The translations under genes and the position numbers were made by a program. Of a stretch of DNA of 64,000 nt, positions 22,324 to 59,482 are shown one piece after another; within the stretch, counting starts at the first letter, position 1; each line of letters starts with the position of its first letter. Origin of the DNA: Chloroflexota bacterium (GTDB taxonomy: Bacteria; Chloroflexota; Chloroflexia; QHBQ01); NCBI GenBank assembly GCA_043754535.1, contig JAYUUN010000001.1, forward strand, positions 461-64,460, written 5' to 3'. The notes below the pieces were generated by a model, which worked only from the letters and a program-made list of their open reading frames with translations, made no database searches and was not told where the DNA came from.

Positions 22324-22332
22324 TGGTATAAT
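22324..22332 (+). promoter_or_regulatory. extended -10 promoter (TGGTATAAT), 6 nt before the ogg ATG (leaderless candidate)
   Basis: TATAAT at 22327-22332, spacer GGGCCT, ATG 22339. No SD possible. Confidence 0.5.
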
Positions 22333-22338
22333 GGGCCT

Positions 22339-24122: not shown

Positions 24123-24256
24123 GTGTAAGCACTTCCACATGAAAGGGCTTTCAGATGGGGGATGGGGTGACGGGTGGTCAATCAGGCCGCCTGCCTGCCT
24201 CTGGCGGCTTTTGGCGACGCATTGCGTCCATTTGGAGATCTCAAGGAGGAGACAAG

Positions 24257-25717
24257 ATGAAGTTTTGGAGAGCAACTGTCCTACTGCTGGTCGCAGCCTT
24301 CCTGTTGATGGCTTGTGACAACAACGCGGCGGCTCCCGCTGCCAGCACCACTCCGACGAAGGCAGCCTCGGCTGCCAATACCCCAATGGCTCCCGCTGCG
24401 GCGACCAACACCACGATGGCGGCAGCTCCCGCTGTGGCGACCGATACCCCTGCTGCCGCTGCTGCTGCACCCAAGCCGACAAACACGATGGGCGCACTGC
24501 CTACGCCAAATAGTGCCAGCGGCGTAACTACCCTCTGGTTCCACTCTGGCACCGGCGGCGAGCGTGAGGCCCTCGAAGCCTCGATCAAGAAGTTCAACGC
24601 CAGCAACAGTGGCACCACCATCGAAGCAGTGCAACTGCCAGAGGGTAGCTACAACGATCAGGTGAACGCCGCCGCCCTCGCCAATGGCTTGCCTTGCCTG
24701 CTCGATTTTGATGGCCCCAACGTCTATAACTACGCCTGGACAGGCCGCCTCGTGGCACTAGACAGCTACGTGGCTGCCGACATGAAGGCCGACTTCCTGC
24801 CCTCGATCATCCGCCAGGGTACCTACAACAACAAGCTGTACAGCCTCGGCCAGTTCGACTCCGGCCTCGGTATCTACGGCAACAAGGACTTGCTGACCAA
24901 GGCTGGTGTACGCATCCCCACTGGGGTTAGCGATGCCTGGAGCAGCGAGGAGTTCAACGACGCGCTCAAGAAGCTGAAGGCCAGCGGCCTTGCCTACCCG
25001 CTCGACATGAAGATGGACTATGGGCGCGGCGAGTGGTACACCTATGGCTTCAGCCCGATTCTGCAATCGTTTGGCGGCGACCTGATCGACCGCAGCAACT
25101 ACCAGAAGGCCGATGGCACGATCAACAGCGCAGCTTCGGTCAAGGCGATGACCTGGTTCCAGGGTCTGTTCAAGGATGGCTACGTCAATCGCAAGCCCGC
25201 TGGTGGCACCGACTTTGCCGACGGCAAGGCTGCTCTCAGCTACGTGGGCCACTGGACTTACGCTGATTACAAGAAGGCTCTCGGCGACAAGTTGGTGGTG
25301 TTGCCAATGCCCAAGTTCGGCGGCAAGGCCGTAACCGGCCAGGGTAGTTGGAACTGGGGTATTACCTCGACCTGCAAAGACCCCGCTGCCGCCTGGAAGG
25401 TGATGAGCTTCCTGCTCTCCGATGAGGAAATCTTGCGCATGACCGACGCGAACGGCGCGCCGCCTGCCCGCAAGTCCGCCCTCAGCCAGTCCAAGCTCTA
25501 TGGCCCTGGCGCGCCGCTGCAAGTCTTCGCCGACCAGCTAAACAACAGCCTCAGCCTCGAACGCCCCGTCACCCCAGCCTACCCGGCTATCACCGCTGCC
25601 TTCCAAGAGGCCACCGATAACATCGTCAACGGGGCCGACGTGAAGGGCGCACTAGACAAGGCGGCCAAGAAGATCGACCAGGACATCCAGGACAACCAGG
25701 GTTACCCGATCAAGTAG
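24257..25717 (+). CDS. sugar ABC transporter substrate-binding lipoprotein (family 1 SBP)
   Basis: MKFWRATVLLLVAAFLLMAC lipobox, Ala/Thr/Pro-rich linker, then a family-1 SBP pattern. AAGGAGGA before ATG 24257; the ORF-track start is 24155. Confidence 0.85.
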   Translation: MKFWRATVLLLVAAFLLMACDNNAAAPAASTTPTKAASAANTPMAPAAATNTTMAAAPAVATDTPAAAAAAPKPTNTMGALPTPNSASGVTTLWFHSGTGGEREALEASIKKFNASNSGTTIEAVQLPEGSYNDQVNAAALANGLPCLLDFDGPNVYNYAWTGRLVALDSYVAADMKADFLPSIIRQGTYNNKLYSLGQFDSGLGIYGNKDLLTKAGVRIPTGVSDAWSSEEFNDALKKLKASGLAYPLDMKMDYGRGEWYTYGFSPILQSFGGDLIDRSNYQKADGTINSAASVKAMTWFQGLFKDGYVNRKPAGGTDFADGKAALSYVGHWTYADYKKALGDKLVVLPMPKFGGKAVTGQGSWNWGITSTCKDPAAAWKVMSFLLSDEEILRMTDANGAPPARKSALSQSKLYGPGAPLQVFADQLNNSLSLERPVTPAYPAITAAFQEATDNIVNGADVKGALDKAAKKIDQDIQDNQGYPIK

Positions 25718-25731
25718 TTACCTCTGCGGTC

Positions 25732-25773
25732 AGGACTGCTCTGCTCCCCCTCTAGTAGGGGGAGTGCAGTCCT
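25732..25773 (+). promoter_or_regulatory. intercistronic stem-loop between SBP and permease genes
   Basis: AGGACTGC/GCAGTCCT (8 bp) plus CTCCCCCT/AGGGGGAG (8 bp) with a 5-nt loop and no U-tract. Confidence 0.5.
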
Positions 25774-25824
25774 AACAGAGCCTTAACTCTCTTTAGCTCT
25801 TTCTTGTAGAAGGCGAGGTAAAAT

Positions 25825-26751
25825 ATGAGCGTGCAAAACACTGTCGTTCCCCGCTCTGGCAACTGGCGCAAGGGAGAGGAGCGCACAGCCTGGCTGCTGG
25901 CTACCCCTGCTATCCTGCTCCTGGGCAGCTTCCTGATTGTTCCCTTCCTGATGGCTGTCTACTTCTCCTTCACCGACCAACGGCTGGTACCTAACCCCAA
26001 CCTCGAAACCCAGTTCATCGGCTTCCGCAACTACCAGCGGATGCTCGACGACGATACGCTCAAGCACGCCCTGCTCAACAACTTCACCTTTGTGATCGTG
26101 GTCGTGCCGATCCAGACCGGCCTCGCCCTGGCCCTTGCGCTGCTGGTCAACCAGAAGTTGCGGGCAATGAACCTGTTCCGTACCATCTACTTCACCCCTG
26201 TGGTGACGATCATGGCGGTGGTGGCGGTCATCTGGTACTTCCTCTACAACCCCGGTAGCGGGCTGATCAACTCCTTCTTGCAGAGCATTACCTTTGGCCT
26301 GTTCAAGCCAGTAGACTGGTTGGGCGACAAGAACCTGGCTCTGCCCTCGATCATGGTTCTCTCGATCTGGCAGGGGGTTGGCTTCCAAATGCTCATCTTC
26401 CTGGCTGGGCTGCAAGAGATACCTGACTCGCTCTATGAGGCCGCCGACATTGACGGCGCAAGCCGTTGGCAGCAGTTCCGCAACGTCACCATCCCTGGCC
26501 TGCGTAACACCATACTCTTTGTGGTCATCTCTACCACCATCCTCGCCTTCCGCCTATTCGACCAGATTTGGGTGATGACCAAGGGCGCACCAGAGGACTC
26601 GACAGCCACCATGGTGCTGCACATCGTCCAGCAAGGCTTCAGCCAGCAGAAGGTCGGTTACGCCTCGGCGATCTCGGTCTTCTTCTTCCTGCTAGTGCTG
26701 ACGATCTCAATCCTCCAACGGGTGTTTATCAAAGAAGAAAGGCACGTGTAA
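25825..26751 (+). CDS. carbohydrate ABC transporter permease (MalF/CUT1 type)
   Basis: Six hydrophobic segments. EAA-like loop EAADIDGASRWQQFRNVTIPGLRNT. Confidence 0.85.
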   Translation: MSVQNTVVPRSGNWRKGEERTAWLLATPAILLLGSFLIVPFLMAVYFSFTDQRLVPNPNLETQFIGFRNYQRMLDDDTLKHALLNNFTFVIVVVPIQTGLALALALLVNQKLRAMNLFRTIYFTPVVTIMAVVAVIWYFLYNPGSGLINSFLQSITFGLFKPVDWLGDKNLALPSIMVLSIWQGVGFQMLIFLAGLQEIPDSLYEAADIDGASRWQQFRNVTIPGLRNTILFVVISTTILAFRLFDQIWVMTKGAPEDSTATMVLHIVQQGFSQQKVGYASAISVFFFLLVLTISILQRVFIKEERHV

Positions 26752-26753
26752 CT

Positions 26754-27677
26754 ATGGCTGTTCGCACAGAGCAACTCGCACCTGCTGCGGCAGGCACCGT
26801 CCACGGCACTGGCTATCAGCTACGGCGGCTCATCTTCCGCCTGCTCGACTACGGGCTGATGATCCTGCTCGCCATCTTCTTCCTGTTCCCCCTGATCTTC
26901 ATGCTAGTTAGTTCGCTGAAGGGTGATGAGGGTCAGGTCTTGCGTGACATGAGCAGCCTGCAAGCCTTCGTGCCAAGCAGCATCTCCTTCCAGAACTACC
27001 AGGATGTGTTCAAGAACGTCCCCTTTGGCCGCAATATGCTCAACTCGGTGATCGTCACTGGTGGCATCGTGGCCCTGGGCCTGCTAGTCAACAGCATGAT
27101 CGCCTACTCGCTGGCGCGCATCAACTTTCGGGGGCGCAGCATCGTACTGGCCGTCGTCGTCAGCCTGATCATCATCCCCTTCCAGGCGGTGGCCGTGCCG
27201 CTACTGCTGTTGGTCAACTCGCTACCCAGCTTCGGCCTCGGCAAGCCTGGCTGGATCGACAGCTACCATGTGCAGATCATCCCCTTTGTCGCCGACGCGT
27301 TCTCAATCTTCCTGTTCTACCAATTCTTCATTGCCATCCCCAAAGACCTGGAGGAGGCTGCGTTGGTGGACGGGGCGGGCCGCTTCCGCATCTATTGGAG
27401 CATCATCATTCCGCTCTCCAAGCCGGTCTTTGCGACGGTGGCGATCCTCCAGTTTCTTAGTCGCTGGGGCGAACTGCTCTGGCCGGTAATGGTCACGAGG
27501 GGCGACAGCTATCGCCCGCTGCCAGTGGCAATGCAGACCTTCTTCGGTCAACAGCCGCGCCAATGGGGTGACATCATGGCCTTCGCCGCAATGGTAACGA
27601 TCCCAGTGCTGGTCATCTTCCTCATCTTCCAACGCTGGTTTGTGCAAAGCGTCACCTCGACCGGGGTCAAGGGCTAA
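26754..27677 (+). CDS. carbohydrate ABC transporter permease (MalG/CUT1 type)
   Basis: ATG 26754 lies 2 nt after the upstream stop. EAALVDGAGRFRIYWSIIIPLSKP EAA loop. The ORF-track start 26568 overlaps the previous gene. Confidence 0.85.
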   Translation: MAVRTEQLAPAAAGTVHGTGYQLRRLIFRLLDYGLMILLAIFFLFPLIFMLVSSLKGDEGQVLRDMSSLQAFVPSSISFQNYQDVFKNVPFGRNMLNSVIVTGGIVALGLLVNSMIAYSLARINFRGRSIVLAVVVSLIIIPFQAVAVPLLLLVNSLPSFGLGKPGWIDSYHVQIIPFVADAFSIFLFYQFFIAIPKDLEEAALVDGAGRFRIYWSIIIPLSKPVFATVAILQFLSRWGELLWPVMVTRGDSYRPLPVAMQTFFGQQPRQWGDIMAFAAMVTIPVLVIFLIFQRWFVQSVTSTGVKG

Positions 27678-27695
27678 CACCAGGGAGGAAGTGCG

Positions 27696-29621
27696 TTGGA
27701 ATACCCTGCTGAGTTGATTCTGGAGGACATCATGCCTCGCCTGGCGGCCTGGTTCGCTGCTGACCGCGCCGCTTGGCCTGCCTTCCAGACGCGGCTGCAC
27801 TGCCACTTTGACCACCTCTATGGGCTGTTGGCCGAACTGTACGGCGGCCACTACGCCTTCCGCCAGCACGTGGAGGAGAGCCTATTGCTGGCTGCTCGCA
27901 CCTGGCTTGCCCGCCCTGCCGAACTGAAGACTCTGGACGCAGAGCGCGAGGCAGACCCCCTTTGGTTCCAGGCGCAAACGATGGTGGGTGGGGTCTGCTA
28001 CGTTGACCGGTTCGCTGGCACGCTGGCAGGGGTGCGTGAAAAGATACCTTACTTCAAAGAACTGGGTCTCACCTACCTGCACCTGATGCCCCTCTTTCTT
28101 GCGCCAGCGGGCAACAGCGACGGTGGCTATGCGGTCAGCAGCTACCGCGAGGTCAACCCCACCCTCGGTAGCATGGCCGAGCTTGCCGAACTAGCCAGCG
28201 AACTGCGCCACAACGGGATCAGCCTGGTCGTGGATTTTGTCTTCAACCACACCGCTGACGAACACACCTGGGCGCAGCAGGCTCTGGCGGGCGTGCAAGA
28301 GTACCAGGACTACTACCGCCTGTTCCCCAGCCGCACGCTGCCCGATGCTTACGAGCGCGACCTGCGCGAAATCTTCCCTGGTCAGCGGCCTGGCAGCTTT
28401 ACCTACCGCCCAGAGATCGCTAGTTGGGTTTGGACGACCTTCAACAGCTTCCAATGGGACCTCAACTACGCCAACCCCGCCGTCTTCACCGCCATGGCGG
28501 GCGAGATGCTGTTCCTTGCCAATCAGGGGGTGGAAGTGCTGCGCCTGGATGCGGTGGCCTTCATCTGGAAGCGGTTGGGGACAACCAGCGAGAACCTGCC
28601 AGCAGCCCATCTTCTAGTGCAGGCGTTCAACGCCCTCATTCAAATCGCAGCCCCTGCTCTGCTCTTCAAGTCCGAGGCTATCGTCCACCCCGACGATGTG
28701 GCCCGCTACATCAGCCCTGCTGAGTGCCAGATTTCTTACAACCCGCTGCTGATGGCCCTGCTCTGGGAGGCGTTGGCAACCCGCGAGACCAAGCTGCTAC
28801 AAACCTCCATGCAGCACCGCTTTGCGATCAACCCCGCCTGCGCCTGGGTCAACTATGTGCGTTCGCACGACGATATTGGCTGGACGTTCGACGACGAAGA
28901 CGCGGCCCGCGTGGGCATCAACGGCTTTGACCACCGCCTCTTTCTCAATCTCTTTTACACCGGACGCTTTGCTGGTAGCTTTGCCCGTGGCGTACCCTTC
29001 CAGGAGAACCCCCGCACTGGTGATGCGCGGGTTTCTGGCACGGCGGCTTCGCTAGTCGGCCTGGGCCAGGCGGTGGCGGCGAACGACGCGCAGCAGATTG
29101 AGTTGGCGATCCGTAGAGTGCTGCTGCTCTATGGGGTCGCCATGTCCGCTGGCGGCATCCCTCTGATCTACCTGGGTGACGAGGTCGGCACCCTCAACAG
29201 CTTCGCCTACCTGGACGACCCGGCGAAGGCCGAGGATAGCCGCTGGGTGGGCCGCCCCTACGCCGACTGGCAGCAGTACGCTGCCCGCCACGACCCTACC
29301 ACCGTCGGGGGCCGCATCTACCAGGCTATCTGCCAGCAGATCGCAGTACGAAAGGCGCAGCCGCTCTTTGCTGGCGGTGCCGCCGAGTTTCTCGACCCTG
29401 GCAACGGCCATGTGCTGGCCTACGCCCGTCAGCAGGGCGACAGCCGCCTGCTAGCCCTGGTCAACTTTAGCGAACAGCCGGAGACCGTCGCCGCCGACCT
29501 GGTGCGCTGGCACGGGCAAGGGGCGCGTTTCCATGACCTGATTAGCGGCGTGGAGATGGCAATTGAGGACGATCTGAGGCTAGAACCTTACCAGTTCGTC
29601 TGGCTGCTGAGGGAGGATTAG
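27696..29621 (+). CDS. ams: amylosucrase (GH13_4)
   Basis: Collinear with Neisseria amylosucrase blocks: VGGVCYVDRFAG..IPYFKELGLTYLHLMPLF, SDGGYAVSSYREVNP, FNSFQWDLNYANP, LDAVAFIWKRLGTTSENLP, FKSEAIVHPDD, VNYVRSHDDIGWTF, PLIYLGDEVG. GGGAGGA before TTG. Confidence 0.9.
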   Translation: MEYPAELILEDIMPRLAAWFAADRAAWPAFQTRLHCHFDHLYGLLAELYGGHYAFRQHVEESLLLAARTWLARPAELKTLDAEREADPLWFQAQTMVGGVCYVDRFAGTLAGVREKIPYFKELGLTYLHLMPLFLAPAGNSDGGYAVSSYREVNPTLGSMAELAELASELRHNGISLVVDFVFNHTADEHTWAQQALAGVQEYQDYYRLFPSRTLPDAYERDLREIFPGQRPGSFTYRPEIASWVWTTFNSFQWDLNYANPAVFTAMAGEMLFLANQGVEVLRLDAVAFIWKRLGTTSENLPAAHLLVQAFNALIQIAAPALLFKSEAIVHPDDVARYISPAECQISYNPLLMALLWEALATRETKLLQTSMQHRFAINPACAWVNYVRSHDDIGWTFDDEDAARVGINGFDHRLFLNLFYTGRFAGSFARGVPFQENPRTGDARVSGTAASLVGLGQAVAANDAQQIELAIRRVLLLYGVAMSAGGIPLIYLGDEVGTLNSFAYLDDPAKAEDSRWVGRPYADWQQYAARHDPTTVGGRIYQAICQQIAVRKAQPLFAGGAAEFLDPGNGHVLAYARQQGDSRLLALVNFSEQPETVAADLVRWHGQGARFHDLISGVEMAIEDDLRLEPYQFVWLLRED

Positions 29622-29623
29622 CC

Positions 29624-30604
29624 TTGCTGCACCCAGCCGACCTGTACCTATGGGACTTCTGGTTTGCGCCGCGCAAGATGGGTGAGCCATACCACCTGTT
29701 CTACCTGCATGCTCCGCGCAGCCTGCCCGACCCTGACTTGCGCCATGCGGTGGCGACCATAGGCCACGCTGTCTCTGACGACCTGCACCAGTGGCAGCAG
29801 TTGCCGACCGCCTTCAATCAGGGCGCGCCTGGTAGCTGGGATGACCGCGCAATCTGGACGGGCAGCATCATAGAGCGGGCTGGCACCTACTACTTCTTCT
29901 ACACTGGTACGCAACTGGCCGAAGACGGTCTCGTGCAGCGCATCGGGCTAGCGACCTCTAGCGACTTGCAGCACTGGCAGCGGCACGCCGCCAACCCGTT
30001 GCTAGAGGCTGACCCCCGTTGGTACGAGAAGCTCGGTGGCTCTAGCTGGTGGGAGGAGGCCTGGCGCGACCCCTGCGTGGTCTGGTCGCCAGCGGATGGC
30101 TGCTACCTGATGTTCATTACCGCCCGCGTCAACTATGGCCCCGCTGATGGCCGCGGCGTGATCGGCTGCGCCCGCTCAAGCGATTTGCTACATTGGGAGG
30201 CGTTGCCGCCAGTCAGCGAACCAGGTGAGTTTGCCCACCTGGAAGTGCCGCAAGTGTTGGCCCTGGATGGCCGCTACTACCTGCTGTTTTGCACCGCCAG
30301 CGACACCCACTCGGCAGCCCGGCGCACGCGCGCAGGAGACTCCGCTGCCTGGTTCGGCACCCACTACCTGGTCAGCGAACGGTTGGCTGGCCCCTACGCG
30401 CTCAGCACCGACGTAGGGCTGGCGGTTGGTGCGGGCGATTACGCGGGTAAAATCATCGAGGGGCCGGATGGCAGCCTCTGCTTCCTGGCCTGGCAGATGC
30501 ACGGGCCAGACGGTGCGTTTGCAGGCGCACTGAGCGATCCCCTTCCCCTTCTCCTCCTCCCCGACGGCAAGCTGGCGGTTCGATACCCAGCGGCTAATCC
30601 TTGA
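29624..30604 (+). CDS. GH-J clan (GH32/GH68-like) beta-fructofuranosidase/fructosyltransferase-like protein
   Basis: LWDFWF (nucleophile Asp motif), AWRDPCVVW (RDP), FAHLEVPQV (candidate acid/base Glu), repeated blade-like HWQ segments. No signal peptide. The start is 2 nt after the ams stop. Confidence 0.65.
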   Translation: MLHPADLYLWDFWFAPRKMGEPYHLFYLHAPRSLPDPDLRHAVATIGHAVSDDLHQWQQLPTAFNQGAPGSWDDRAIWTGSIIERAGTYYFFYTGTQLAEDGLVQRIGLATSSDLQHWQRHAANPLLEADPRWYEKLGGSSWWEEAWRDPCVVWSPADGCYLMFITARVNYGPADGRGVIGCARSSDLLHWEALPPVSEPGEFAHLEVPQVLALDGRYYLLFCTASDTHSAARRTRAGDSAAWFGTHYLVSERLAGPYALSTDVGLAVGAGDYAGKIIEGPDGSLCFLAWQMHGPDGAFAGALSDPLPLLLLPDGKLAVRYPAANP

Positions 30605-32108: not shown

Positions 32109-32137
32109 TTGACAAAGCTGTGCAAAGAGTGTACAAT
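32109..32137 (+). promoter_or_regulatory. sigma70-type promoter TTGACA-17-TACAAT
   Basis: TTGACA 32109-32114, 17-nt spacer, TACAAT 32132-32137. A second TATAAT lies at 32151-32156. Confidence 0.55.
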
Positions 32138-32169
32138 GCCTCCATAGTCCGTATAATAGGAGGCTAGCA

Positions 32170-32361
32170 ATGACTTTCTTCAGCCCAGCAATTTACCTTG
32201 ACCCACTTGGTGAACCAAATGTGGGACAGCCGCCCCTGCTGGTGGCTACCCAGCGCGACGAAGTAGAACCGCCCGCCCCGCAGCCATTGCAGCCCAGCCA
32301 GCCACCCCGCCGCCAGCCCAGCCCGCCACCCAAAGAGCAGGAGCCTACTAACCTGCACTAA
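32170..32361 (+). CDS. 63-aa proline-rich small protein (hypothetical)
   Basis: AGGAGG (32157-32162) lies 7 nt before ATG 32170, directly downstream of the consensus promoter. The product is Pro/Gln-rich. Confidence 0.4.
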   Translation: MTFFSPAIYLDPLGEPNVGQPPLLVATQRDEVEPPAPQPLQPSQPPRRQPSPPPKEQEPTNLH

Positions 32362-32391: not shown

Positions 32392-35300
32392 CTAGCTGAT
32401 CTTGACCACTACGCAGTCGTTGGGGGCGAGGTCGCCAATTAGCTCGACGAAGGAGAGGCCTACGAGGCTGTTGCTCCAACTCGCCAGGTTCACTGTGCTG
32501 CCAAAGTAGCTGAATAGGGTCGCCACCTTGCCGCGCAGGTTGTGGCTGTCCAGCCGCTGTAGCTTGATGCGCCCGCGCTGGTGGTCGGGCAGGCGGTTGA
32601 GCAGGTAGAGCAGGTAGCCGTCATCAACCTTGTGGCTAACCACTTCGATGTCCAGGCTGGTCTGGTGGCGGCAGCCTACGCCGAGGGTAGTGACCAGGGC
32701 GCGCATGAAGCTGCGTAGCTCCGCCCGCTCCGACGTGGTGCTGGCGTAATACTGGCCGCTCATGTAGTGGCCGCCGAGGACGGTGCCGATCAAGGTGCTG
32801 CTGCCCTTGCCGACCGCTGTAGTGTAGGCCACAGTCTGACCTTTGTGCCTGAGCAGTGGTTGCGCCTGCCCATCCTGCACCGCCAGATAGTAGTCGCCGC
32901 GCACCTGGCCGCCGAACACGCTATCCAGCCTGACTGTGGGCAGTTTGGTGTTGGTGAAGACGAGGATCGGCTCGAAAGCATCCATGATGTGACCGCTGTA
33001 GGGGTGCTTCGCCAGGAGAGCCTTGCGCTGGCGGTTGTAGCCGAGCAGCCAGCGGCTAGCGAGGGCAGTCAACGCCTGCCGCAGTCCCAGCCAGCGTTCC
33101 TTGCTCACCACTTCGGGGTAGAGTTCGCCAGAGAGCAGGCCATTGCCTTGCAAGTCGTAGCGCAGCGGTTGGGGGAAGGTGACGAGGTGGCCACCAGCCT
33201 TCACGTATGCTAGCAGCTTCGCATATTCGGCGCGGTCAGCATAACCCTTGCTGGGGAAGAAGATCACCCGCTGCTGTTGCAACTCCTCTGCGCTCACGGT
33301 CGCCAGGTTGAGCGGGCGGGGGTTGTAGCCTGCGTTGAGTAGGACAGCGAAGGGGCCGTGCTGCCCATGAAAGTTACTGAAGTATTGTACTGGGTTCTGC
33401 AAGCCGACCAATGGCAGGTACTCAGCATAGCTGAAGCGATAGTTGGGCTGGTAGTAGGCGTAGCCAATCTCGTCGTAGATTTCTTTGGCGGCCAGCAGGT
33501 CGGCGGTATGCTGGCTGATGAAGCGGTGTAGCTGGCTGATCAGTTCGTAGCGCGGCCCTGGTTGCGCGTCCTTGTCCAGAATAGCCTGGTACTGGTAGAG
33601 GCTGCCGTCGATCTCCACCCCATCCATTGCGCTGTACATCACACTGCCACGCAAGCCGTGCGCCAGGCAGGCGACATAGCTCTGCAAAATCGCTGCGTCG
33701 CTGAGGTTGCTGCGGGGGTCGAACCAGCCTGAGCCAAGCTCGAAGGCCAACAGCGGCTTGTCAGGGCGTACCTCTGGCTTGACCACGGCGGGGTAGGTGC
33801 TGCCGCCCCAGGGAAAATCGGCTGCGTGGCTGGCGGCGGTCTGCTTGAGGTAGATGTCGATCCCCTGCCAATCGCCCACCGCCGCCTGTGTGTGTGGATC
33901 GCAGGGCGAGTGGTAGGTGAGGGCGGTATTGAGGATGATCGGCAGGGTGATGCCCGCCCCCTCGGCCACCCCGCGCAGCCAACGCAGGTAGTCAACTACA
34001 TAACCCTCGTAGAACTGCTGCCAGTCCAGAGCTTGGGCGGTTGTTGCGCCCTTCCTGGGTGGCTCCAACCCGGCTTCGCTGACGTACTTGCGGTGGTGTG
34101 CCTTGCCGACGCTAGCGAGGTCGCCATAGCGTTGCAGCAGCCAGGCGCGGTACTGGTCGCGGGTAGCGGGGTTGAAGTCCCACAGGCCGAGGCCGTTCTG
34201 CTGCACGAAGCCCGGCTCGTTGTCCAGTTGCCAGGCTACAACCGGTTTGTCCAGGTAGGGCTGGATCGCACTGGCTACCGCTGCAATCCAGGCCGCTACC
34301 TTCGCCCGATAGGTGGGGTCACCCATTGCGTGGCCGTACCAGAAGTCGCCGCGGATTAGCTTGCCTCCTGGCCCCCGCATTACTGTTTGCGGGTAGCGTT
34401 CGCCTAGCCAGAGTGGGTGGCCGAGACCGTTGTACTCGGCGTAGATGAAGGGGCCAGGCCGCGCGATGAACGGTAGCTCAAACTCGTGCAGCAAGTCTAG
34501 CAAGCCCAGCAGGTTGCGGCGCGGGTCACTCGTGCCAGCGAAATCCAGCACCCCCTCCTGCGGCTCGTGCCAGACCCAGGGGATGTAGCTGGCAATGGCA
34601 TTGAAGCCAGCCTCCTTCAGGCGGCGTAGGGCGGCGGGCCAGAGATTGGGCGCGATGCGGAAGTAGTGCAATTCGCCTGCCCGCAGGTAGAGGGGCTGCC
34701 CATCGAGGTTGAGGTGGTAGTTGCTGGCAGTCAGTCTGCTCATCGGTGTAGCCTCCGAGAATAAGCGGTTGGGGGTGATGGTGATGTTGAGGAAGCCGAA
34801 AGCGAGACCTTGTGGGTACGGATCGTCCCCCCCCGCTTGCCTAGGGGCTACTTCGGCTGGCTCCTCCGAGTAGAAGCTGAGGAGATTGCTGCCCGCCCGC
34901 AGGTTCAGGCTGAGGCTGATCTGCTGCTGGGCATTCTTGACCGCCAGGGCCGTTAGTGGTGCATCATTGAGGTTGAGGCGGATGTGGCGCATCTTTGCTG
35001 CCGCCTTAGCGACCTCGGCTGCCGAACCGTCGGCTAGCTTGAAGTAGGCGTAGATTGTGGTGGTTAGCTGCGCGCTGGTTGCTACTGGCGACCAGATGCT
35101 GAGACCAACTTCGCGCCCGCTCGTCCAGCGCGAAGGATTGTGGCCGTTCGGCTCGCTCTGGAAGGGGTACCAGCCGCCGCCCGCCAGTTCCACTGCCAGG
35201 GGTGGACTGGTGGGTGGGGGTGGCACGCGGTAGGTGAGAATGTCGTCGGCCTGCTGGGTGGGCGGCTGCTGCGGCCAGATTACGTTGATCAGGTCAAGCA

Positions 35301-37113
35301 ACTGGTTCTTCTCCACTTCGCCCTTTGGTGGCGGCATGGCCGCGAAGCAGGCCAGGTGAACGTTGACGTAGCGGATGCCATAGTAGTTGAGGATGGTCGC
35401 GCCGCTGAGGGCTAGGTTGCGGCTGATGATGTCGGCAGCGGCGGGTAGCTGGCCTTCTACAAACAACTGACGGATGGCGGGGGTGTCGGCGGCAAATGGG
35501 TAGTCGTACTTGCGCGAGATGTAGCCGCCCAGCACCTTCTGCTGATGCACGGTCTGGTAGAGTTCGTACTGTGGGGCGCAGTTGTTGGGCAATTCCAGTA
35601 CTGCGTAGCTGCCAGGCGCGTCTTGAGCCAACCTGTGGTAGAGGGCGGGACTGATAGTGCTGGTCAGGGGCTGACCGCCCGTTGGCACGCTCTCCACAAA
35701 GATTAGCAGGCAGAGGAGTAGTGGCAGCGCAACAGGAGCAAGGCGAGTAGTCACCCTACTGTTGCGCCCCCATGCGTGTACCGCTGCCAACAACGCTGCT
35801 GTACCAAGCGTCGCCAGCACAGCCACACAGAGCATCCCTGGCAGGCTGAAGCGACCAGCAACACGGGCGATGCTGCCTAGCGGGGTGAAGCGCAAGAGGT
35901 AGAAGGGGAGGGGCAGGCGGCTGTCCTTGCCGAAGGGGTGAAAGAGCGCGTCCACGTCCTGCGCGTCGGTGTTTGCGAGGCCACCTGGCCCCAGCTTGAG
36001 GTAGGGGCCGAGGGCGAGCAGGAAGCAGAATAGGCCACTGAGCGCGAAGAAGCTGGTGTAGCGGCGGCGCACACCCCCAGCCCTGACCCCAGCAACCACG
36101 CCGCCGACCGCTAGCAGCCCTGCGAACAGGCCAATGAACCAGCTAACCTCCGTTATGCCCAGTGCTGCATTGCCCCAGAGCAGTGATGGCCCTGGCTGCA
36201 CAAACTGGGGTAGAGCAGCAGCGTTGTAGACAATGAAGCTCTCATCGGCTAGCACCGGCTTGTTGGCCGCGAGTTCGCGCCCCATAGCCAGCAGCAGGGG
36301 GCTGACTACTAGCGCAAAGCCGCCGAGGGCAATAGCTGCCTGCCGTAGGATCAGCAGGCGGGCTGCCCGTCCCTCAGCAGCAGGGGCCATAGGTTCTGGG
36401 TGGGTGACCTGCCAGAGGATCAGCAGCCCAGCGAAGACGAGCAGGAACAGGCCATAGTACCAGGTGTGCTGCGAGGCAAGGATGATGAAGGCGGCAGCGA
36501 CCACGGCATCGCGCCAGCGGTAGGGTGGACGTAGGGCGCGTAGCAGGTAGAGCGCGCCGAAGGGGAGCCACTGGATGCTGATCAACTCCAACTGACCTAG
36601 GCGCACGAAGCTAGCTGCTGCTGCACAGTAGGCGAAGACCACGCCCGCTACCAACGCGGCGTAAGGGGAGGCGGCTATAGCAGGGCGGGGGTCGAGGGCA
36701 AGTACGTAGTTCGCTAGCAGGTATGCGCCCCAGGCTGCCAGGGTGAGGTTGAGGATCACTAGCAGGTTGAAGCTGGTGGTCAGGCTGAAGAACGCTTGCA
36801 GCGGGATGGCAAACAAGCCGCCAAGCTGGTTGAGGGCGTGGAAGCGTAGGCTGACCCCAGTGGGGTAGAACAGGTAGTCAGTCTGGAACGGGGACTGATG
36901 CAGATCGAGCAAGGCGTGGCGCGTCCACCAGAGGTTCCAGAGGTGCGCCCAGGCATCGCTGCCGCCCGCCAGGATCACGCTGTCACCCAGGTGCAGGACT
37001 AGCGGCCAGCTAAAGATGATAGTAAGCAGCAGATAGAAGGGTAGGGGAAGCAGATGTTGCCACCGGCTGGCTCTTGCTGTCTTGGGGCTGGAAGGGGCTG
37101 GCTGCTCAATCAT
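32392..37113 (-). CDS. 1573-aa fusion: N-terminal polytopic GT-C/YfhO-like membrane domain plus C-terminal GH35-type beta-galactosidase domain
   Basis: N-terminal ~600 aa with many TM segments (GGSDAWAHLWNLWW loop). GH35 blocks ASYIPWVWHEPQEGVLDFAG, RPGPFIYAEYNGLGHPLWL, WQLDNEPG, AFELGSGWFD. Later a GATase-like block VIFFPSKGYADRAEYAKLLAYVKAGGHLVTFPQ. Confidence 0.7.
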   Translation of the reverse strand: MIEQPAPSSPKTARASRWQHLLPLPFYLLLTIIFSWPLVLHLGDSVILAGGSDAWAHLWNLWWTRHALLDLHQSPFQTDYLFYPTGVSLRFHALNQLGGLFAIPLQAFFSLTTSFNLLVILNLTLAAWGAYLLANYVLALDPRPAIAASPYAALVAGVVFAYCAAAASFVRLGQLELISIQWLPFGALYLLRALRPPYRWRDAVVAAAFIILASQHTWYYGLFLLVFAGLLILWQVTHPEPMAPAAEGRAARLLILRQAAIALGGFALVVSPLLLAMGRELAANKPVLADESFIVYNAAALPQFVQPGPSLLWGNAALGITEVSWFIGLFAGLLAVGGVVAGVRAGGVRRRYTSFFALSGLFCFLLALGPYLKLGPGGLANTDAQDVDALFHPFGKDSRLPLPFYLLRFTPLGSIARVAGRFSLPGMLCVAVLATLGTAALLAAVHAWGRNSRVTTRLAPVALPLLLCLLIFVESVPTGGQPLTSTISPALYHRLAQDAPGSYAVLELPNNCAPQYELYQTVHQQKVLGGYISRKYDYPFAADTPAIRQLFVEGQLPAAADIISRNLALSGATILNYYGIRYVNVHLACFAAMPPPKGEVEKNQLLDLINVIWPQQPPTQQADDILTYRVPPPPTSPPLAVELAGGGWYPFQSEPNGHNPSRWTSGREVGLSIWSPVATSAQLTTTIYAYFKLADGSAAEVAKAAAKMRHIRLNLNDAPLTALAVKNAQQQISLSLNLRAGSNLLSFYSEEPAEVAPRQAGGDDPYPQGLAFGFLNITITPNRLFSEATPMSRLTASNYHLNLDGQPLYLRAGELHYFRIAPNLWPAALRRLKEAGFNAIASYIPWVWHEPQEGVLDFAGTSDPRRNLLGLLDLLHEFELPFIARPGPFIYAEYNGLGHPLWLGERYPQTVMRGPGGKLIRGDFWYGHAMGDPTYRAKVAAWIAAVASAIQPYLDKPVVAWQLDNEPGFVQQNGLGLWDFNPATRDQYRAWLLQRYGDLASVGKAHHRKYVSEAGLEPPRKGATTAQALDWQQFYEGYVVDYLRWLRGVAEGAGITLPIILNTALTYHSPCDPHTQAAVGDWQGIDIYLKQTAASHAADFPWGGSTYPAVVKPEVRPDKPLLAFELGSGWFDPRSNLSDAAILQSYVACLAHGLRGSVMYSAMDGVEIDGSLYQYQAILDKDAQPGPRYELISQLHRFISQHTADLLAAKEIYDEIGYAYYQPNYRFSYAEYLPLVGLQNPVQYFSNFHGQHGPFAVLLNAGYNPRPLNLATVSAEELQQQRVIFFPSKGYADRAEYAKLLAYVKAGGHLVTFPQPLRYDLQGNGLLSGELYPEVVSKERWLGLRQALTALASRWLLGYNRQRKALLAKHPYSGHIMDAFEPILVFTNTKLPTVRLDSVFGGQVRGDYYLAVQDGQAQPLLRHKGQTVAYTTAVGKGSSTLIGTVLGGHYMSGQYYASTTSERAELRSFMRALVTTLGVGCRHQTSLDIEVVSHKVDDGYLLYLLNRLPDHQRGRIKLQRLDSHNLRGKVATLFSYFGSTVNLASWSNSLVGLSFVELIGDLAPNDCVVVKIS

Positions 37114-37120
37114 GAGCGCG

Positions 37121-37129
37121 ATTATACCA
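37121..37129 (-). promoter_or_regulatory. extended -10 promoter (TGGTATAAT), 7 nt before ATG 37113 (leaderless candidate)
   Basis: The minus strand reads TGGTATAAT-CGCGCTC-ATG. Confidence 0.5.
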
Positions 37130-38853: not shown

Positions 38854-41595
38854 ATGCTGGGAGTGGAACAAGTGGCGCAGGTGACGAACAACCGTATAGT
38901 AGCACAGCAGCCGGGCAGCCACTGGCGACAGTGGCGCGCCAGTTTTGGCTGGAAGGGCATCGTCTTCCACCTGATCATCTTCTTTTTCTTCGCTAACATG
39001 GTCATCGTCGGCGCACAGAGCATTGGCACCATCGGCCAACCCTGGACTGGCCTCTACTTCAACTACTACTTCAAGGTGCTGGGGGCCGATCCGCCCAGCA
39101 CTGAACTTGCCCCTCAGCGCGACCCTCACGTTCTCAGGCGCGACATCATCGTGCTGATCGAGGGACAGTCGCCGCTAAACACCGAGCCGGTACTACGCGC
39201 AAAGTTTGCGGCGGGGGCCAAAGAGATCACCTACCTGGTTAAGCGCGGTAGCGGCAACTCTGCCACCGAGCTTGCTGTTACCAGCCGCCTACGCACCTTT
39301 GAGTGGGCCGATTACTTGGCCCTCTTTGGCATCGGCACGCTGGTGGGCTGGCTTTTCTTCATCACCGGCCTGGGGATTTATTACTTGCGGCCACAGGAGC
39401 GGCTGAACCAGGTGTTCATGCTGACGATGATCAACGCCGCCGCCTACCTGGTCGTTGGCTACGAGGGGGTGTACGTCTACCGACCCAATCCTCTAGACCT
39501 CAACTGGTTCGAGCAACTGGGCAGCGTATTGCTCTGCCTGTTGGGGGCAACCACCTTCCAGCTTGCCGCCAACTTCCCGGCGGTCAAGCCGTTGGTGCGC
39601 CGCCGCCCATGGGTGCAATACATCCTCTACCCCGTCGCCGCTGTGGTCGCCCTCATTGTTGTGATCGCGGTAGGCAGGAAGATCAGCAGCGTCATCTTGC
39701 ATCAAGATTTCGATGCTAGCCTCGCCTTCTTTGGTGCTGATTATGGTCTAGCGGGCTTCGGCACGGCGGCTCTGCTAGCGGGCATCATCTACGATGCAGT
39801 GAGCAGCCGCGAACCAACTGTGCGTCGGCAAGGGCGAATCGTGCTGGCTGGTGGGCTGCTGGGGGTTGGCCCCCTGCTGTTTTTCTACTTGATACCAACC
39901 ACCTTCGTCGGTCGTGCGCTGATAGAATTCAACCTCGGCTATGCCTTCCTGCTTTTCTTCCCGCTTTCGGTTGCCTACGCGATCATTCGCTACAAGTTGT
40001 TCGACTTCAACTTCCTGCTGCGGCGCACTATTGCTTATGTGATCGCCAGCCTCGTGTTCGCCTTCGGCTATCTCGTCTTTGTCGGCCTCTTGCAGGCGGC
40101 CTTCAGTGGCATTACCGGGCGTAGCACTATCCTTGCCAACATCCTCAGCACGGTGGGCATCGTTGTGCTTTTCAGCCCAGTCTACAACCGGTTCCGCCGC
40201 CTGGTCGAACGCTACTTCTTCCGCGAACGCTACGTCTTTCGCCACGCCATGTTGGACTTCAGCCGCCAAGTGCGCGACATCTACGATCAGGATGAATTGG
40301 GCAACCGCCTGGTGCGCGAGGTGACGGCGATCATGGACCTGCAAGGGGCAGCCCTCTACCTGGACGTGGCGGACGGCAGCCACTCCCTCCACCTCAGCCA
40401 CGTAGCTAGCAGCCGCGACGTGGGGGCCAACCAGCGCAGCCAACTAATCAGCTACGACGAGAGTGAGGAGCGAGCCGAGCAGTGGCGTGAAGGGCTACCA
40501 CTTGGCACAGAGGTGCGAGCTTGGCTGCTGAGCTACAACCGCCCGCTCAACATGGCGACCCTGCCCGATACTATCCCTAGCGACGGCGAGCCACTGTTGG
40601 CCTACTGCCTGGCAGAGAAGATCGCTATGTTTATCCCATTGGTGGTCGAGGGTCGATTGGTTGGGCTGCTGCTGCTGCGGCGCAAGCGGAGCGGAGCAAG
40701 AGTGCTGCGCGAGGACATTGACCTGCTGACCGCCCTGCTACCGCAGGTGACGCTAGCCCTACGGAATGCACAACTGCTAGCCGAGGCAACTGGTAGGCAA
40801 CGAGTGGTGACCGAGATGGAGATCGCCCGCGAGATTCAGCTTGGCCTCTTTCCGCGCCACATCCGCCAGCCAGTTGGCTACGCCATCCGCGCCACCTGCC
40901 TGCCTGCGCGGGAAGCTAGTGGTGACATCTACGATGTGGTAGAGATCGGCGAGCGGCTAGCCCTGATCGTCGCCGATGCGTGTGGCAAGGGGGTGCCAGC
41001 CGCGATGATGATGGGCCTGGCCCGCAATACAGTGCGGAGCGAGCTTGGCTACTACACCGACCCGGCCCCTACCCTGACCGCTGCCAACCGCTGGCTCAAC
41101 TACGACCTGGGTGACCGTAGCTTCGTAGCTCTCACCTATATGCTGCTCGACCCCATCCACCACCTCATCACCCTCAGCAATGCGGGTGGCCTATCGCCTA
41201 TCCTCTACCGCGCGGGGGTGTGTAGCTACCTCGGCACCACCGGCCCCAGCCTGCCGCTTGGTATCATCCCCGACATCGACTACCAGCAGGTGGAGGTGGC
41301 CTTGCAGCCGGACGATCTGGTGATCTGCTACACCGACGGGTTGGTAGAGGCGATCAACAAGGCAGAGGAACTCTACAGTTTTGAGCGACTAGAGGCGGCT
41401 ATCTGTGCCTGGGACGGGCAAGGCGAGGCAGAGGGGCTGATTAGCTACCTGATCAACGAAGTTAACCAATTTAGTGAGGGGGTGGCCCAGGCCGATGACA
41501 TCACTATCATGGTGATCTCCTACGCCCCCGTAGCCGCCACCATACCCCAACTGGGTAGCCAGCCAGCTTCGCCACATCTCCTACCAGTCGGATGA
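38854..41595 (+). CDS. membrane-bound SpoIIE/PP2C-family phosphatase with PDZ-like, polytopic sensor and GAF-like regions
   Basis: C-terminal EIQLGLFP, ASGDIYDV, VADACGKGVPAAMMMG, CYTDGLVEA, ADDITIMV (SpoIIE motifs). About 10 TM segments. An N-terminal extracytoplasmic block IIVLIEGQS...EITYLVKRG. Confidence 0.75.
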   Translation: MLGVEQVAQVTNNRIVAQQPGSHWRQWRASFGWKGIVFHLIIFFFFANMVIVGAQSIGTIGQPWTGLYFNYYFKVLGADPPSTELAPQRDPHVLRRDIIVLIEGQSPLNTEPVLRAKFAAGAKEITYLVKRGSGNSATELAVTSRLRTFEWADYLALFGIGTLVGWLFFITGLGIYYLRPQERLNQVFMLTMINAAAYLVVGYEGVYVYRPNPLDLNWFEQLGSVLLCLLGATTFQLAANFPAVKPLVRRRPWVQYILYPVAAVVALIVVIAVGRKISSVILHQDFDASLAFFGADYGLAGFGTAALLAGIIYDAVSSREPTVRRQGRIVLAGGLLGVGPLLFFYLIPTTFVGRALIEFNLGYAFLLFFPLSVAYAIIRYKLFDFNFLLRRTIAYVIASLVFAFGYLVFVGLLQAAFSGITGRSTILANILSTVGIVVLFSPVYNRFRRLVERYFFRERYVFRHAMLDFSRQVRDIYDQDELGNRLVREVTAIMDLQGAALYLDVADGSHSLHLSHVASSRDVGANQRSQLISYDESEERAEQWREGLPLGTEVRAWLLSYNRPLNMATLPDTIPSDGEPLLAYCLAEKIAMFIPLVVEGRLVGLLLLRRKRSGARVLREDIDLLTALLPQVTLALRNAQLLAEATGRQRVVTEMEIAREIQLGLFPRHIRQPVGYAIRATCLPAREASGDIYDVVEIGERLALIVADACGKGVPAAMMMGLARNTVRSELGYYTDPAPTLTAANRWLNYDLGDRSFVALTYMLLDPIHHLITLSNAGGLSPILYRAGVCSYLGTTGPSLPLGIIPDIDYQQVEVALQPDDLVICYTDGLVEAINKAEELYSFERLEAAICAWDGQGEAEGLISYLINEVNQFSEGVAQADDITIMVISYAPVAATIPQLGSQPASPHLLPVG

Positions 41596-42505
41596 GCGGC
41601 ACAAGGGCGACCGCCGCCAGCCGCTGCAACGGTGCAAGGGTGGTGAGGCGGGGCCACAAGCGGCGGTAGGGGGTTGCACAGTAGGTGGCAGCCCCGGCTA
41701 GCAACAAGTACCCCAACCAGCCAAACCGTTGCGGCTTGAACATCGCCAGCCCAGCCAGCAACGGGCCGAGGGTGTAAGTAGCGTAGCGGATCGTGTGCCG
41801 CCTGCGCCACAGGTCGGCCTTGCCGTCCCCCCGTGCGTAGCGGTAGTATTGTCGCCAGAAGGAGCGCAGGTTGGAGCGTGGGCGGTAGCTGGCAACAGCA
41901 GCGGCGGCGAAGGGAAAGGGTGCGCCTGTGTAGGCGCGCAAAGCGAAGTCAAATAGCAAGTCCTCGCAGTAGTCCAGCCACTCTGGGTAGCCACCCACCG
42001 CCTGCCACGCGGTCTTGCGGAAGGCGATGCTGCGGCTGGAGGGTAGGAAGTGGGCTGGCTCGATCTCGGCCAGATCGGGTAGGGTGGTAGCCCCCAGCGC
42101 GACCTCGAAGGTCGTCTGTGGGTCGGCCTGGAAGAAGCCACTGACAGCTTGTACGCTTGCCGCGCTGAAGGGGGCGATCAGTTCGGCTAGCCACTCGCGG
42201 CTAAGGCGCACCCCCCCATCGGTGGCGGCGATCACTTCGCCCTCGGCAGCGGCAATCGCCAGGTTGCGGCCTTGCGCGATGTTTACCCCTGGTGCGCTGA
42301 CCACCTGCACTGGCAGGTTGATGGCGTACTCGGCTAGCAGGGTCAGGGTAGCATCACTGCTACCTGCGTCCACCACTACGATCTGGTCAGGCGGACGGCT
42401 CTGGAAGGCAATAGAGGCAAACAGGGCAGGCAGGCTTTCTGCCTCGTTCAACAAGGTCATGATCAGCGATACGCGCAAGTTGCGGCCCTGATCCGTGCTG
42501 CTCAC
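41507..42505 (-). CDS. family 2 glycosyltransferase
   Basis: VSLIMTLLNEAESLPALFASIAFQSRPPDQIVVVDAGSSDAT (GT-A N-terminal motif), DGG, C-terminal hydrophobic segments. The GTG start overlaps the gpsA stop (GTGA). Confidence 0.75.
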   Translation of the reverse strand: MSSTDQGRNLRVSLIMTLLNEAESLPALFASIAFQSRPPDQIVVVDAGSSDATLTLLAEYAINLPVQVVSAPGVNIAQGRNLAIAAAEGEVIAATDGGVRLSREWLAELIAPFSAASVQAVSGFFQADPQTTFEVALGATTLPDLAEIEPAHFLPSSRSIAFRKTAWQAVGGYPEWLDYCEDLLFDFALRAYTGAPFPFAAAAVASYRPRSNLRSFWRQYYRYARGDGKADLWRRRHTIRYATYTLGPLLAGLAMFKPQRFGWLGYLLLAGAATYCATPYRRLWPRLTTLAPLQRLAAVALVPLIRLVGDVAKLAGYPVGVWWRLRGRRRSP

Positions 42506-55609: not shown

Positions 55610-55615
55610 TGCTAG

Positions 55616-55624
55616 ATTATACCA
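55616..55624 (-). promoter_or_regulatory. extended -10 promoter (TGGTATAAT), 6 nt before ATG 55609 (leaderless candidate)
   Basis: The minus strand reads TGGTATAAT-CTAGCA-ATG. Confidence 0.5.
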
Positions 55625-59244: not shown

Positions 59245-59319
59245 GCCGACGTAGCTCAGCGGCAGAGCAGCTGTTTCGTAAACAGCAGGTCGTGGGTTCA
59301 AATCCCACTGTCGGCTCCA
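59245..59319 (+). tRNA. tRNA-Thr (anticodon CGU), CCA encoded
   Basis: Hand-folded cloverleaf: acceptor GCCGACG/TGTCGGC, D stem GCTC/GAGC, anticodon stem GCTGT/ACAGC with loop TTCGTAA, T stem GTGGG/CCCAC with TTCAAAT, discriminator T, CCA 59317-59319. Confidence 0.9.
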
Positions 59320-59466: not shown

Positions 59467-59475
59467 TGGTATAAT
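59467..59475 (+). promoter_or_regulatory. extended -10 promoter (TGGTATAAT), 7 nt before the darA ATG (leaderless candidate)
   Basis: TGGTATAAT-CACTGCC-ATG. There is no SD, and the start is fixed by homology (MKLILAVIQ). Confidence 0.55.
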
Positions 59476-59482
59476 CACTGCC

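Follow-up and report, generated by a model that had tools for sequence, protein, structure and literature searches.

Comparative evidence for a young read-through fusion of a predicted GT-C-fold membrane protein and a GH35 glycosidase in an uncultured Chloroflexia bacterium

The DNA analyzed here, referred to as the window, is a stretch of 64,000 nucleotides (contig JAYUUN010000001.1, positions 461 to 64,460, GC content ~0.62) from an uncultured bacterium of the class Chloroflexia. Its positions 32392-37113 hold a single uninterrupted, ATG-started open reading frame (ORF) of 1573 amino acids that ends with a TAG stop codon. An earlier note on this DNA had recognized the ORF without stating its strand, which is the minus strand; the plus-strand translation of the same interval is riddled with stops. 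The encoded protein joins a membrane protein of predicted GT-C fold (N-terminal half, residues 1-781) to a glycoside hydrolase family 35 (GH35) module (C-terminal half, residues 791-1573) via nine linking residues. The ORF and the features of its junction are as follows.

32392..37113, minus strand: whole fused ORF, 1573 amino acids plus TAG, of identical length in 12 cluster members (NCBI, JGI, ENA, Logan)
34744..34770, minus strand: 9-residue linker NRLFSEATP, corresponding to the former stop codon and the spacer between the genes by comparison with the related locus L002
34752..34756, minus strand: retained Shine-Dalgarno sequence GGAGG, 8 nt upstream of the ATG of Met791
34741..34743, minus strand: ATG of Met791, the ancestral GH35 start and a possible internal start, aligned with Met1 of the GH35 gene in L002

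In locus L002, which contains the closest relative of the N-terminal half (P0051, 66% identity), the two halves are encoded by adjacent, separate and co-oriented genes. The first of these ends with ...FGFLKIDITTSP-TAG and is followed by a 21-nt spacer, CGTGCATCGTGGAGGCACACC, which contains GGAGG, and then by the ATG of a GH35 gene with a product 71% identical to residues 791-1202 of the window protein. The junction in the window reads FGFLNITITP-NRLFSEATP-M791SRLTAS, with sense codons in place of the stop, small indels, and the GGAGG-N8-ATG arrangement kept; the residue stretch spanning it in the full-length fused protein is ITITPNRLFSEATPMSR. The linker is thus homologous to the intergenic spacer of L002, and Met791 also aligns with the N-termini of stand-alone GH35 relatives. 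As thousands of relatives of either half are unfused, the fused state is taken as the derived one. Stop loss between neighboring genes is the commonest route of bacterial gene fusion, and the alignment with L002 shows, at the level of sequence comparison, that two adjacent in-frame genes were joined here by loss of a stop codon, giving a young, lineage-specific read-through.

The presence of two genes in the same frame with a single stop codon between them in L002 would also fit an assembly or sequencing artifact, in which a missed stop or a frameshift merged two genes, an objection that the earlier note had itself raised. This explanation can be regarded as effectively refuted. The 90% cluster of the protein comprises 12 slightly different full-length sequences of 1573 amino acids from NCBI, JGI, ENA, and Logan; the fused gene was also seen in the loci L005, L009, and L010, and it is present in two JGI metagenome contigs among the records. 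A metagenome-assembled genome (MAG) in GTDB, Chloroflexia bacterium La1_metabat2.263, contains the same fused gene at 95% amino acid identity. This copy (L005), which diverges from the window at ~3% of nucleotide and ~5% of residue positions, has an open frame with no indel over residues 77-1573 and the linker DRLLPEATP with three amino acid changes. Moreover, more than a one-base change lies between the spacer of L002 and the linker region of the window, which differ in several substitutions and indels. The merger of the two genes is therefore evolutionary.

Selection was estimated by the Nei-Gojobori method from the comparison of the window with L005 (dS ~0.2). The dN/dS values were 0.143 for the N-terminal half and 0.095 for the C-terminal half, and the 9-codon linker showed three nonsynonymous and no synonymous changes. 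The fusion has thus persisted with both halves, and not the linker, under constraint. By these sequence records it is limited to a single species-level lineage and the relative with 95% identity.

A phmmer search with residues 1-1200 against 1.84 billion representatives gave 9248 relatives, of which only the query itself matched both halves. Relatives of the N-terminal half ended near query residue 781, and the GH35 relatives were stand-alone proteins, mostly of 750-800 amino acids, whose residue 1-6 aligned with query positions 791-803. The search with the C-terminal half alone retrieved 72 proteins, mostly complete stand-alone enzymes of 765-866 amino acids; those with a name were called beta-galactosidase and came mainly from Chloroflexia/Chloroflexota, with some from Omnitrophota and Bacillota. 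A literature search found no described GT-C/glycoside hydrolase fusion relevant to this protein. The earlier view that the architecture is not a standard one is in line with these results: the combination of GT-C and GH35 occurred in no other protein of the searches made. Outside the fused lineage, L002 alone contained a coding pattern for GELHYFR, a result to be read with the low sensitivity of the pattern, which missed the GH35 genes of L004 and L006.

The following features were assigned to the N-terminal half.

35674..37113, minus strand: predicted GT-C-fold membrane domain, residues 1-480, with ~11 transmembrane helices and the N-terminus inside (hydropathy, AlphaFold2, Foldseek, loop Lys+Arg)
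36925..36966, minus strand: motif GGSDAWAHLWNLWW of the first external loop, residues 50-63, containing Asp53 as candidate catalytic residue
35194..35673, minus strand: soluble alpha/beta domain past the last transmembrane helix, residues 481-640, predicted extracytoplasmic (AlphaFold2, Foldseek, positive-inside)
34771..35193, minus strand: CBM35-like beta-sandwich, residues 641-781, natural C-terminus of the stand-alone N-terminal-half family (Foldseek)

Hydropathy analysis confined the membrane segments to residues 20-480; residues 481-781 are soluble, and no further hydrophobic segment was observed from residue ~480 to residue 1573. The multipass region previously placed at residues ~1-600 was thus confirmed in kind and shortened to ~480. 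Searches of Pfam and NCBIfam with residues 1-800 gave no match at E values up to 1, including YfhO (PF09586) and PMT_2 (PF13231), and a PDB profile search found nothing for the membrane part, with only the ILEI domain of homologs matching POMGnT1 and FAM3. Homologs of the N-terminal half gave either ILEI matches or sporadic hits to PMT_2, STT3, and Agl23 in the profile libraries, PMT_2 being touched by four of 38.

A word-indexed search of 5.8 billion proteins retrieved 38 relatives beyond the protein's own cluster. Thirty-seven of them (880-1130 amino acids) align to the N-terminal half, mostly with a C-terminal ILEI/PANDER domain, and the remaining one (P0034) is a permease/GH35 fusion that matches the C-terminal half. 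The ILEI domain is added in 30 of the 38 homologs of the N-terminal half; eukaryotic proteins with such domains have them in a secreted or lumenal location. Many more relatives of the N-terminal half, typically of 700-800 amino acids, were found by a HMMER scan of the 1.84 billion representatives. The 38-sequence alignment revealed the loop signature G-x3-D53-x5-W59-N60-x-W62-W63, in which W62 is invariant, at least 90% of homologs share D53 and W59, and N60 and W63 are invariant or nearly so. The early loop motif pointed out before is therefore a signature of the family. The D53 loop is Asp/Glu-rich, with a Lys+Arg density of 0.03, values that suit an outside loop, and offers an acidic residue in the first predicted extracytoplasmic loop, as GT-C enzymes do.

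The AlphaFold2 model of the N-terminal half, built from the 38-sequence alignment, had a pLDDT of 77.5 and a pTM of 0.84. Its best PDB matches in Foldseek were all GT-C enzymes with a probability of 1.0 and template modeling (TM) scores of 0.36-0.49; the E values were 2e-8 to 2e-5 for yeast and human STT3, archaeal AglB, and bacterial PglB, ~1e-4 for AftA, and 4e-3 for ArnT. The alignment to STT3/AglB/PglB was nearly full-length and included their external C-terminal domain, and the last 140 residues of the N-terminal half matched the carbohydrate-binding modules of family 35 (CBM35) 2w3j, 2w1w, and 2vzp. The model thus lends moderate support, at the level of fold, to a GT-C assignment, and the N-terminal half is a member of an uncharacterized GT-C-fold family covered by no profile library. 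Of the former designation 'GT-C/YfhO-like', the GT-C part was retained at fold level, and the YfhO part found no Pfam counterpart, nor did PMT_2. Two further large polytopic proteins with PMT_2 (GT39-like) matches are encoded in the window at 12357-14513 (minus strand) and 50348-52147 (plus strand). The resemblance to them that had been suggested was not reproduced beyond the level of fold, with hhalign probabilities of 5% and 3%. Within the family of the N-terminal half, P0132 (1649 amino acids) contains at residues 936-1072 a further GT-C domain, which is of PMT_2 type; this tandem GT-C fusion indicates that the C-terminus of the family tolerates large additions.

The membrane topology was deduced from the Lys+Arg density per loop, averaged over 38 family members. 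The N-terminus (0.11) and the loops 171-201 (0.12), 238-252 (0.23), 344-352 (0.40), and 447-457 (0.19) were assigned to the inside, and the D53 loop (44-95, 0.03) and the loops 283-318 (0.035) and 373-418 (0.08), which are also rich in Asp/Glu, to the outside. Because the last two inside loops are each followed by one helix, the chain would exit the membrane at around residue 480 on the outer face. We infer an arrangement of ~11 helices with the N-terminus inside and the C-terminus outside. In GT-C structures with a C-terminal soluble domain, this domain is extracytoplasmic. The predicted outside location of the C-terminus agrees with this property, with the near-full-length alignments to oligosaccharyltransferases, and with the CBM35-like and ILEI domains at the C-terminal end. 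The GH35 module, which had been supposed to act on an extracytoplasmic polymer, is accordingly predicted to lie outside the cell and not in the cytoplasm. This presents a paradox, as its inspected relatives have neither a signal peptide nor a GT-C partner.

The paradox would vanish if the topology were reversed, with the C-terminus of the membrane domain in the cytoplasm and the GH35 module inside and membrane-tethered, as is assumed for P0034. The AlphaFold2 secondary structure has 12 helices that can be counted as membrane-spanning, and an even number would bring the C-terminus inside; P0034 moreover provides a second membrane-protein/GH35 fusion with a probably internal GH35 domain. However, this arrangement would place the loops richest in Lys/Arg (344-352, 0.40; 447-457, 0.19) outside and the CBM35-like and ILEI-type carbohydrate-binding domains in the cytoplasm. 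It also conflicts with the extracytoplasmic position of C-terminal soluble domains in GT-C enzymes and the near-whole-length Foldseek match to STT3/AglB/PglB. We consider it improbable.

The GH35 module of the C-terminal half contains the following features.

33484..34743, minus strand: GH35 catalytic TIM barrel, residues 791-1210 (PF01301, PF02449, 7vkw, 5gsm, AlphaFold2/Foldseek)
34216..34221, minus strand: N965-E966, with E966 as predicted acid/base in WQLDNEPG (aligned to IaSGT E176 and TkGlmA E179)
33739..33741, minus strand: E1125, predicted catalytic nucleophile in AFELG (aligned to IaSGT E343; conserved in at least 90% of 29 homologs)
32914..33483, minus strand: second alpha/beta domain of GH35/GH42 type, GLMA_2nd, residues 1211-1400 (PF22369, AlphaFold2, Foldseek)
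32395..32913, minus strand: C-terminal beta domain of the GH35 module, residues 1401-1573 (all-beta in AlphaFold2; full-length IaSGT/GlmA match)

Pfam searches identified Glyco_hydro_35 (PF01301) at residues 801-972 (E value 1.4e-31, 110.7 bits versus a cut-off of 27), Glyco_hydro_42 (PF02449) at residues 823-1092, and GLMA_2nd (PF22369) at residues 1256-1324 (29.3 bits versus 27.7). The last of these gives its identity to a block that had been noticed before and called GATase-like; the block is present, and the name is to be replaced. The GH35 signature blocks with acid/base and nucleophile had been located correctly. In the PDB, the best sequence matches were IaSGT, a beta-1,2-glucosyltransferase from Ignavibacterium album (7vkw, E value 6.8e-42), and the GlmA structure 5gsm (4.8e-39), with classical beta-galactosidases far behind. 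The AlphaFold2 model based on 29 homologs reached a pLDDT of 92.4 and a pTM of 0.94, and all three domains were matched in Foldseek by IaSGT (7vkx, TM score 0.72-0.83), GlmA (5gsm, 0.76), and then GH42 enzymes.

The two catalytic Glu residues, E966 and E1125, match the pair of clan GH-A, with the acid/base Glu in a motif of N-E-P type, and are conserved among the 29 homologs; the roles of the corresponding residues in IaSGT, E176 as acid/base and E343 as nucleophile, have been described (PMC8861115). In TkGlmA, Asp178 has been credited with specificity for the amino group of glucosamine (PMC8861115). The residue preceding the acid/base is Asn965 in the window protein, as in IaSGT, in place of this Asp178, which makes glucosaminidase specificity unlikely. 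In agreement, the glucosaminidase equivalog NF041127 scored only 143.6 bits against a cut-off of 1500, yet it was the best NCBIfam match; the GH35 beta-galactosidase subfamily NF051902 scored 14.5 bits against a cut-off of 500. The name beta-galactosidase given in the earlier note finds no support in these values, the nearest characterized enzymes being a beta-1,2-glucosyltransferase and exo-beta-glucosaminidases. By sequence and model, the C-terminal half is an intact three-domain retaining GH35 enzyme of the GlmA/IaSGT clade and not a GlmA equivalog. Its substrate is probably a neutral beta-glycoside, and sequence similarity assigns it to a GH35 subclade centered on Chloroflexota.

The closest stand-alone relatives of the C-terminal half, P0200 and P0201 (41-43% identity), are encoded in a conserved row of housekeeping genes and not in sugar-utilization loci. 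This row comprises TilS, HPRT, GH35, a Cu-oxidase_4 protein of YfiH/PgeF type, YggS, DUF6391, and YggT, with the GH35 gene at 3184-5526 in L026, 2839-5181 in L027, and 6001-8343 in L028; it hints at a housekeeping or cell-envelope role of the subclade. In three other proteins of the same GH35 clade (P0098, P0150, and P0152), the N-E acid/base motif is lost (QLHDAG, HLDRQAG, and QVDAGAG versus QLDNEPG). They have long insertions rich in Ala, Pro, Gly, and Arg and may be noncatalytic paralogs.

Taken together, we consider it somewhat probable that the gene encodes a genuine, evolutionarily young read-through fusion in which the N-terminal half is a transferase with a surface-tethered GH35 module, the pairing being specific to the lineage. 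The N-terminal half would act as a polyprenyl-phosphate-sugar-dependent glycosyltransferase at the outer membrane face via Asp53 in the first external loop. Every ribosome completing this half would now continue into GH35, and since the N-terminal half is under selection, the full-length protein should be the working form of the transferase. Given the predicted outside location of the C-terminus, the GH35 module would emerge on the outer side past the last helix and stay tethered to the cell surface behind the CBM-like domain. With both catalytic Glu residues kept and Asn, not Asp, before the acid/base, it would be a retaining enzyme for neutral beta-glycosides, acting by hydrolysis or, as IaSGT does, by transglycosylation. 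The tethered module would then either trim or transglycosylate the product of the transferase or do nothing. As the ancestral GGAGG-N8-ATG at Met791 survives, a free cytoplasmic GH35 enzyme may still be made from the same mRNA.

Several observations weigh against this reading. Among the loci inspected directly, relatives of the N-terminal half had no GH35 neighbor (L003, L007, L011, L016, L032), and GH35 relatives had no GT-C neighbor (L004, L026-L031). With no conserved GT-C/GH35 adjacency outside the lineage, functional coupling may be nil; these loci give no evidence of an old functional partnership, and the pairing appears to be lineage-specific. The topology is a prediction, and between residues 96 and 237 the number of helices can be read in more than one way. 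Export of cytoplasmic enzymes often fails, the jamming by LacZ hybrids being a known example. The GH35 relatives with N-termini that were read, including N-terminally extended ones, showed no signal peptide. For IaSGT, a dimer has been shown, and its cytosolic location was inferred from the lack of a signal peptide (PMC8861115). Finally, the retention of GGAGG over a dS of 0.2 is not significant, with a ~0.37 chance of no change, so that the internal start is to be taken as a possibility and not as a finding.

The same topology, which brings both active sites to one side of the membrane with a CBM35-like module between them, could also be explained by a purpose-built bifunctional surface enzyme, in which the GT-C half builds or attaches an extracytoplasmic beta-glycan and the tethered GH35 module trims or transglycosylates the same polymer, the fusion being adaptive. 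The closest solved structure is that of a transglycosylase and not of a hydrolase, the fusion was kept through a dS of ~0.2 with strong constraint on both halves, and the spacing of only 21 nt between the genes in the sister lineage suggests coexpression. In contrast, the GH35 clade is stand-alone, without a signal peptide in the members read and often among housekeeping genes; no other examined relative of the N-terminal half has a GH35 neighbor; and the linker evolves freely. A shared substrate is not expected in the unfused sister, because the two proteins would occupy different compartments there. We judge this explanation unlikely. The earlier proposal of a machine for synthesis and trimming of an extracytoplasmic galactan is weakened in the same way, as the fusion arose by stop loss between adjacent genes that are separate in L002 and the GH35 clade is otherwise stand-alone.

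The conserved start region of Met791 bears on a further explanation, which we hold to be doubtful, namely that the fusion is a tolerated accident with two products. Functional GH35 would be made from the internal start at M791, and the attached copy would be an inert passenger, exported unfolded or clipped; a correspondingly slight chance is given to selection on the C-terminal half stemming only from the internally initiated product. GGAGG precedes only M791 among 14 in-frame ATGs and forms a canonical Shine-Dalgarno sequence 8 nt before it. L002, the window, and L005 have all kept this sequence, whereas the remainder of the linker has changed. Shine-Dalgarno-led starts are widely used in this genome, and the inspected GH35 relatives appear to be cytoplasmic. 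Internal initiation inside an actively translated ORF is, however, usually inefficient, and at the given divergence the Shine-Dalgarno sequence could have been retained by chance. A useless passenger of 783 residues on an envelope enzyme should be costly, yet the one mutation sufficient to restore a stop was found neither over the dS of ~0.2 nor in the 12 variants. Rather unlikely, in our view, is a combination of both products with separate roles, in which one gene serves two compartments: a surface GH35 module with a new role in envelope-glycan remodeling and an internally initiated cytoplasmic enzyme. If true, this would be compartment switching and neofunctionalization caught in the act via a single stop-codon loss.

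Should the full-length protein be made and its GH35 module be active outside, as in the favored reading, the locus would be a natural experiment with a known 'before' state and an unfused sister locus for comparison. A complete cytoplasmic three-domain glycosidase would have been moved to the cell surface via the loss of a single stop codon. This would bear on the origin of multidomain carbohydrate-active enzymes, on the tolerance of Sec-dependent export for cytoplasmic folds, and on the cooperation of transferase and transglycosylase on envelope glycans of Chloroflexia, whose cell-wall polysaccharides are, to our knowledge, poorly known. If the fusion is only a tolerated accident, it would be an ordinary Rosetta-stone event of little functional meaning. 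The analysis also highlights a large GT-C-fold family with a D-x5-W-N-x-W-W loop motif outside all profile libraries searched, and a Chloroflexota-centered GH35 subclade.

The start of the fused gene is preceded by one further element.

37121..37129, minus strand: extended -10-like sequence TGGTATAAT, ending 7 nt before the ATG (leaderless-type start)

The pattern TATAAT-N5-8-ATG occurred four times in the window versus 0.19 expected, a number that no shuffle out of 100 attained. The four sites (22327-22341, plus strand; 37111-37126, minus strand; 55607-55621, minus strand; 59470-59485, plus strand) coincide with ORF starts (22339+, 37113-, 55609-, and 59483+), and the extended form TGGTATAAT is common to two of them. 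A sigma-70 scan upstream of the fused gene gave no good -35 hexamer and did not flag a promoter. The leaderless look of the gene noted before is thus a reasonable reading that derives from the extended -10 sequence and the enrichment test, not from the sigma-70 scan. A Shine-Dalgarno sequence leads most genes of the window, and the enriched pattern suggests that this Chloroflexia genome regularly uses leaderless mRNAs beside Shine-Dalgarno-led genes.

The fused gene is solitary in the window: the iPGM gene diverges from it, and a small ORF and fpg converge on it. Its adjoining genes include none for polyprenyl-donor synthesis; a GT2 gene (41507-42505) lies 4.4 kb away. The small ORF converging on its 3' end (32170-32361, plus strand) would encode a Pro/Gln-rich product of 63 amino acids with no family match and is also called as a gene in the Logan contig L001. 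A strong promoter-like TTGACA-17-TACAAT (11/12) with an overlapping TATAAT is located just upstream of it, site and ORF together covering 32109-32361 (plus strand). Just downstream of the 3' end of the fused gene, on the opposite strand (24155-30604, plus strand), is a row for sugar uptake and breakdown. Beside a solute-binding protein and ABC permease(s), this row encodes an amylase-type enzyme of GH13 (27696-29621) and one that resembles GH32/GH43 (29624-30604); it has no obvious link to the fusion. Elsewhere in the window, 1265-3160 (minus strand) encodes a 631-amino acid protein with a GH39-type catalytic domain limited to residues 266-545 and an N-terminal part of 265 residues without a Pfam match. 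A tRNA-Thr (CGU) at 59245-59319 (plus strand) was the sole Rfam/ARAGORN match.

With regard to known systems, the C-terminal half most resembles IaSGT (IALB_1185; 7vkw/7vkx), the best solved match in both sequence and fold. The two share the N-E acid/base motif and the same nucleophile Glu, and IaSGT is without a signal peptide (PMC8861115), like the ancestral stand-alone GH35 form. Their identity is only ~20-30%, and IaSGT is a free cytoplasmic dimer from a beta-1,2-glucan utilization cluster, whereas the C-terminal half is part of a membrane-protein fusion whose gene lacks neighbors of this kind. The GlmA enzymes of Thermococcus kodakarensis (5gsm) and Pyrococcus (5gsl, 6jow, 8oug) have the same three domains, including GLMA_2nd, and the catalytic Glu pair, but the C-terminal half differs from them in its score of 143.6 bits against the equivalog cut-off of 1500 and in having Asn965 for Asp178.

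The N-terminal half shares with STT3/AglB/PglB, AftA, and ArnT the predicted fold, the N-terminus inside, an acidic residue in the first external loop, and a soluble domain after the last helix. In contrast to this likeness, no sequence similarity to Pfam, NCBIfam, or PDB GT-C families was detectable, and the TM scores were only 0.36-0.49. Its own family (~730-1000 amino acids; P0002-P0039, P0051, P0052, P0065, and others) aligns end to end with residues 1-781 at 25-66% identity; the relatives listed have no GH35 module and end at the beta-sandwich or add the ILEI domain. Another natural fusion of a polytopic membrane protein with GH35 is P0034 (1253 amino acids, from a 'Candidatus Cybelea' MAG), with an APC-type permease at residues 11-417 and GH35 from residue 482. 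It is annotated merely as 'amino acid permease', and its membrane/GH35 architecture appears to be undescribed. P0034 is independent of the window protein, its partner being an APC-family transporter unrelated to the N-terminal half. In APC-family permeases the termini are usually cytoplasmic; the C-terminus of P0034 is presumably so as well, and its GH35 domain would therefore be free of the export paradox that the fused protein presents.

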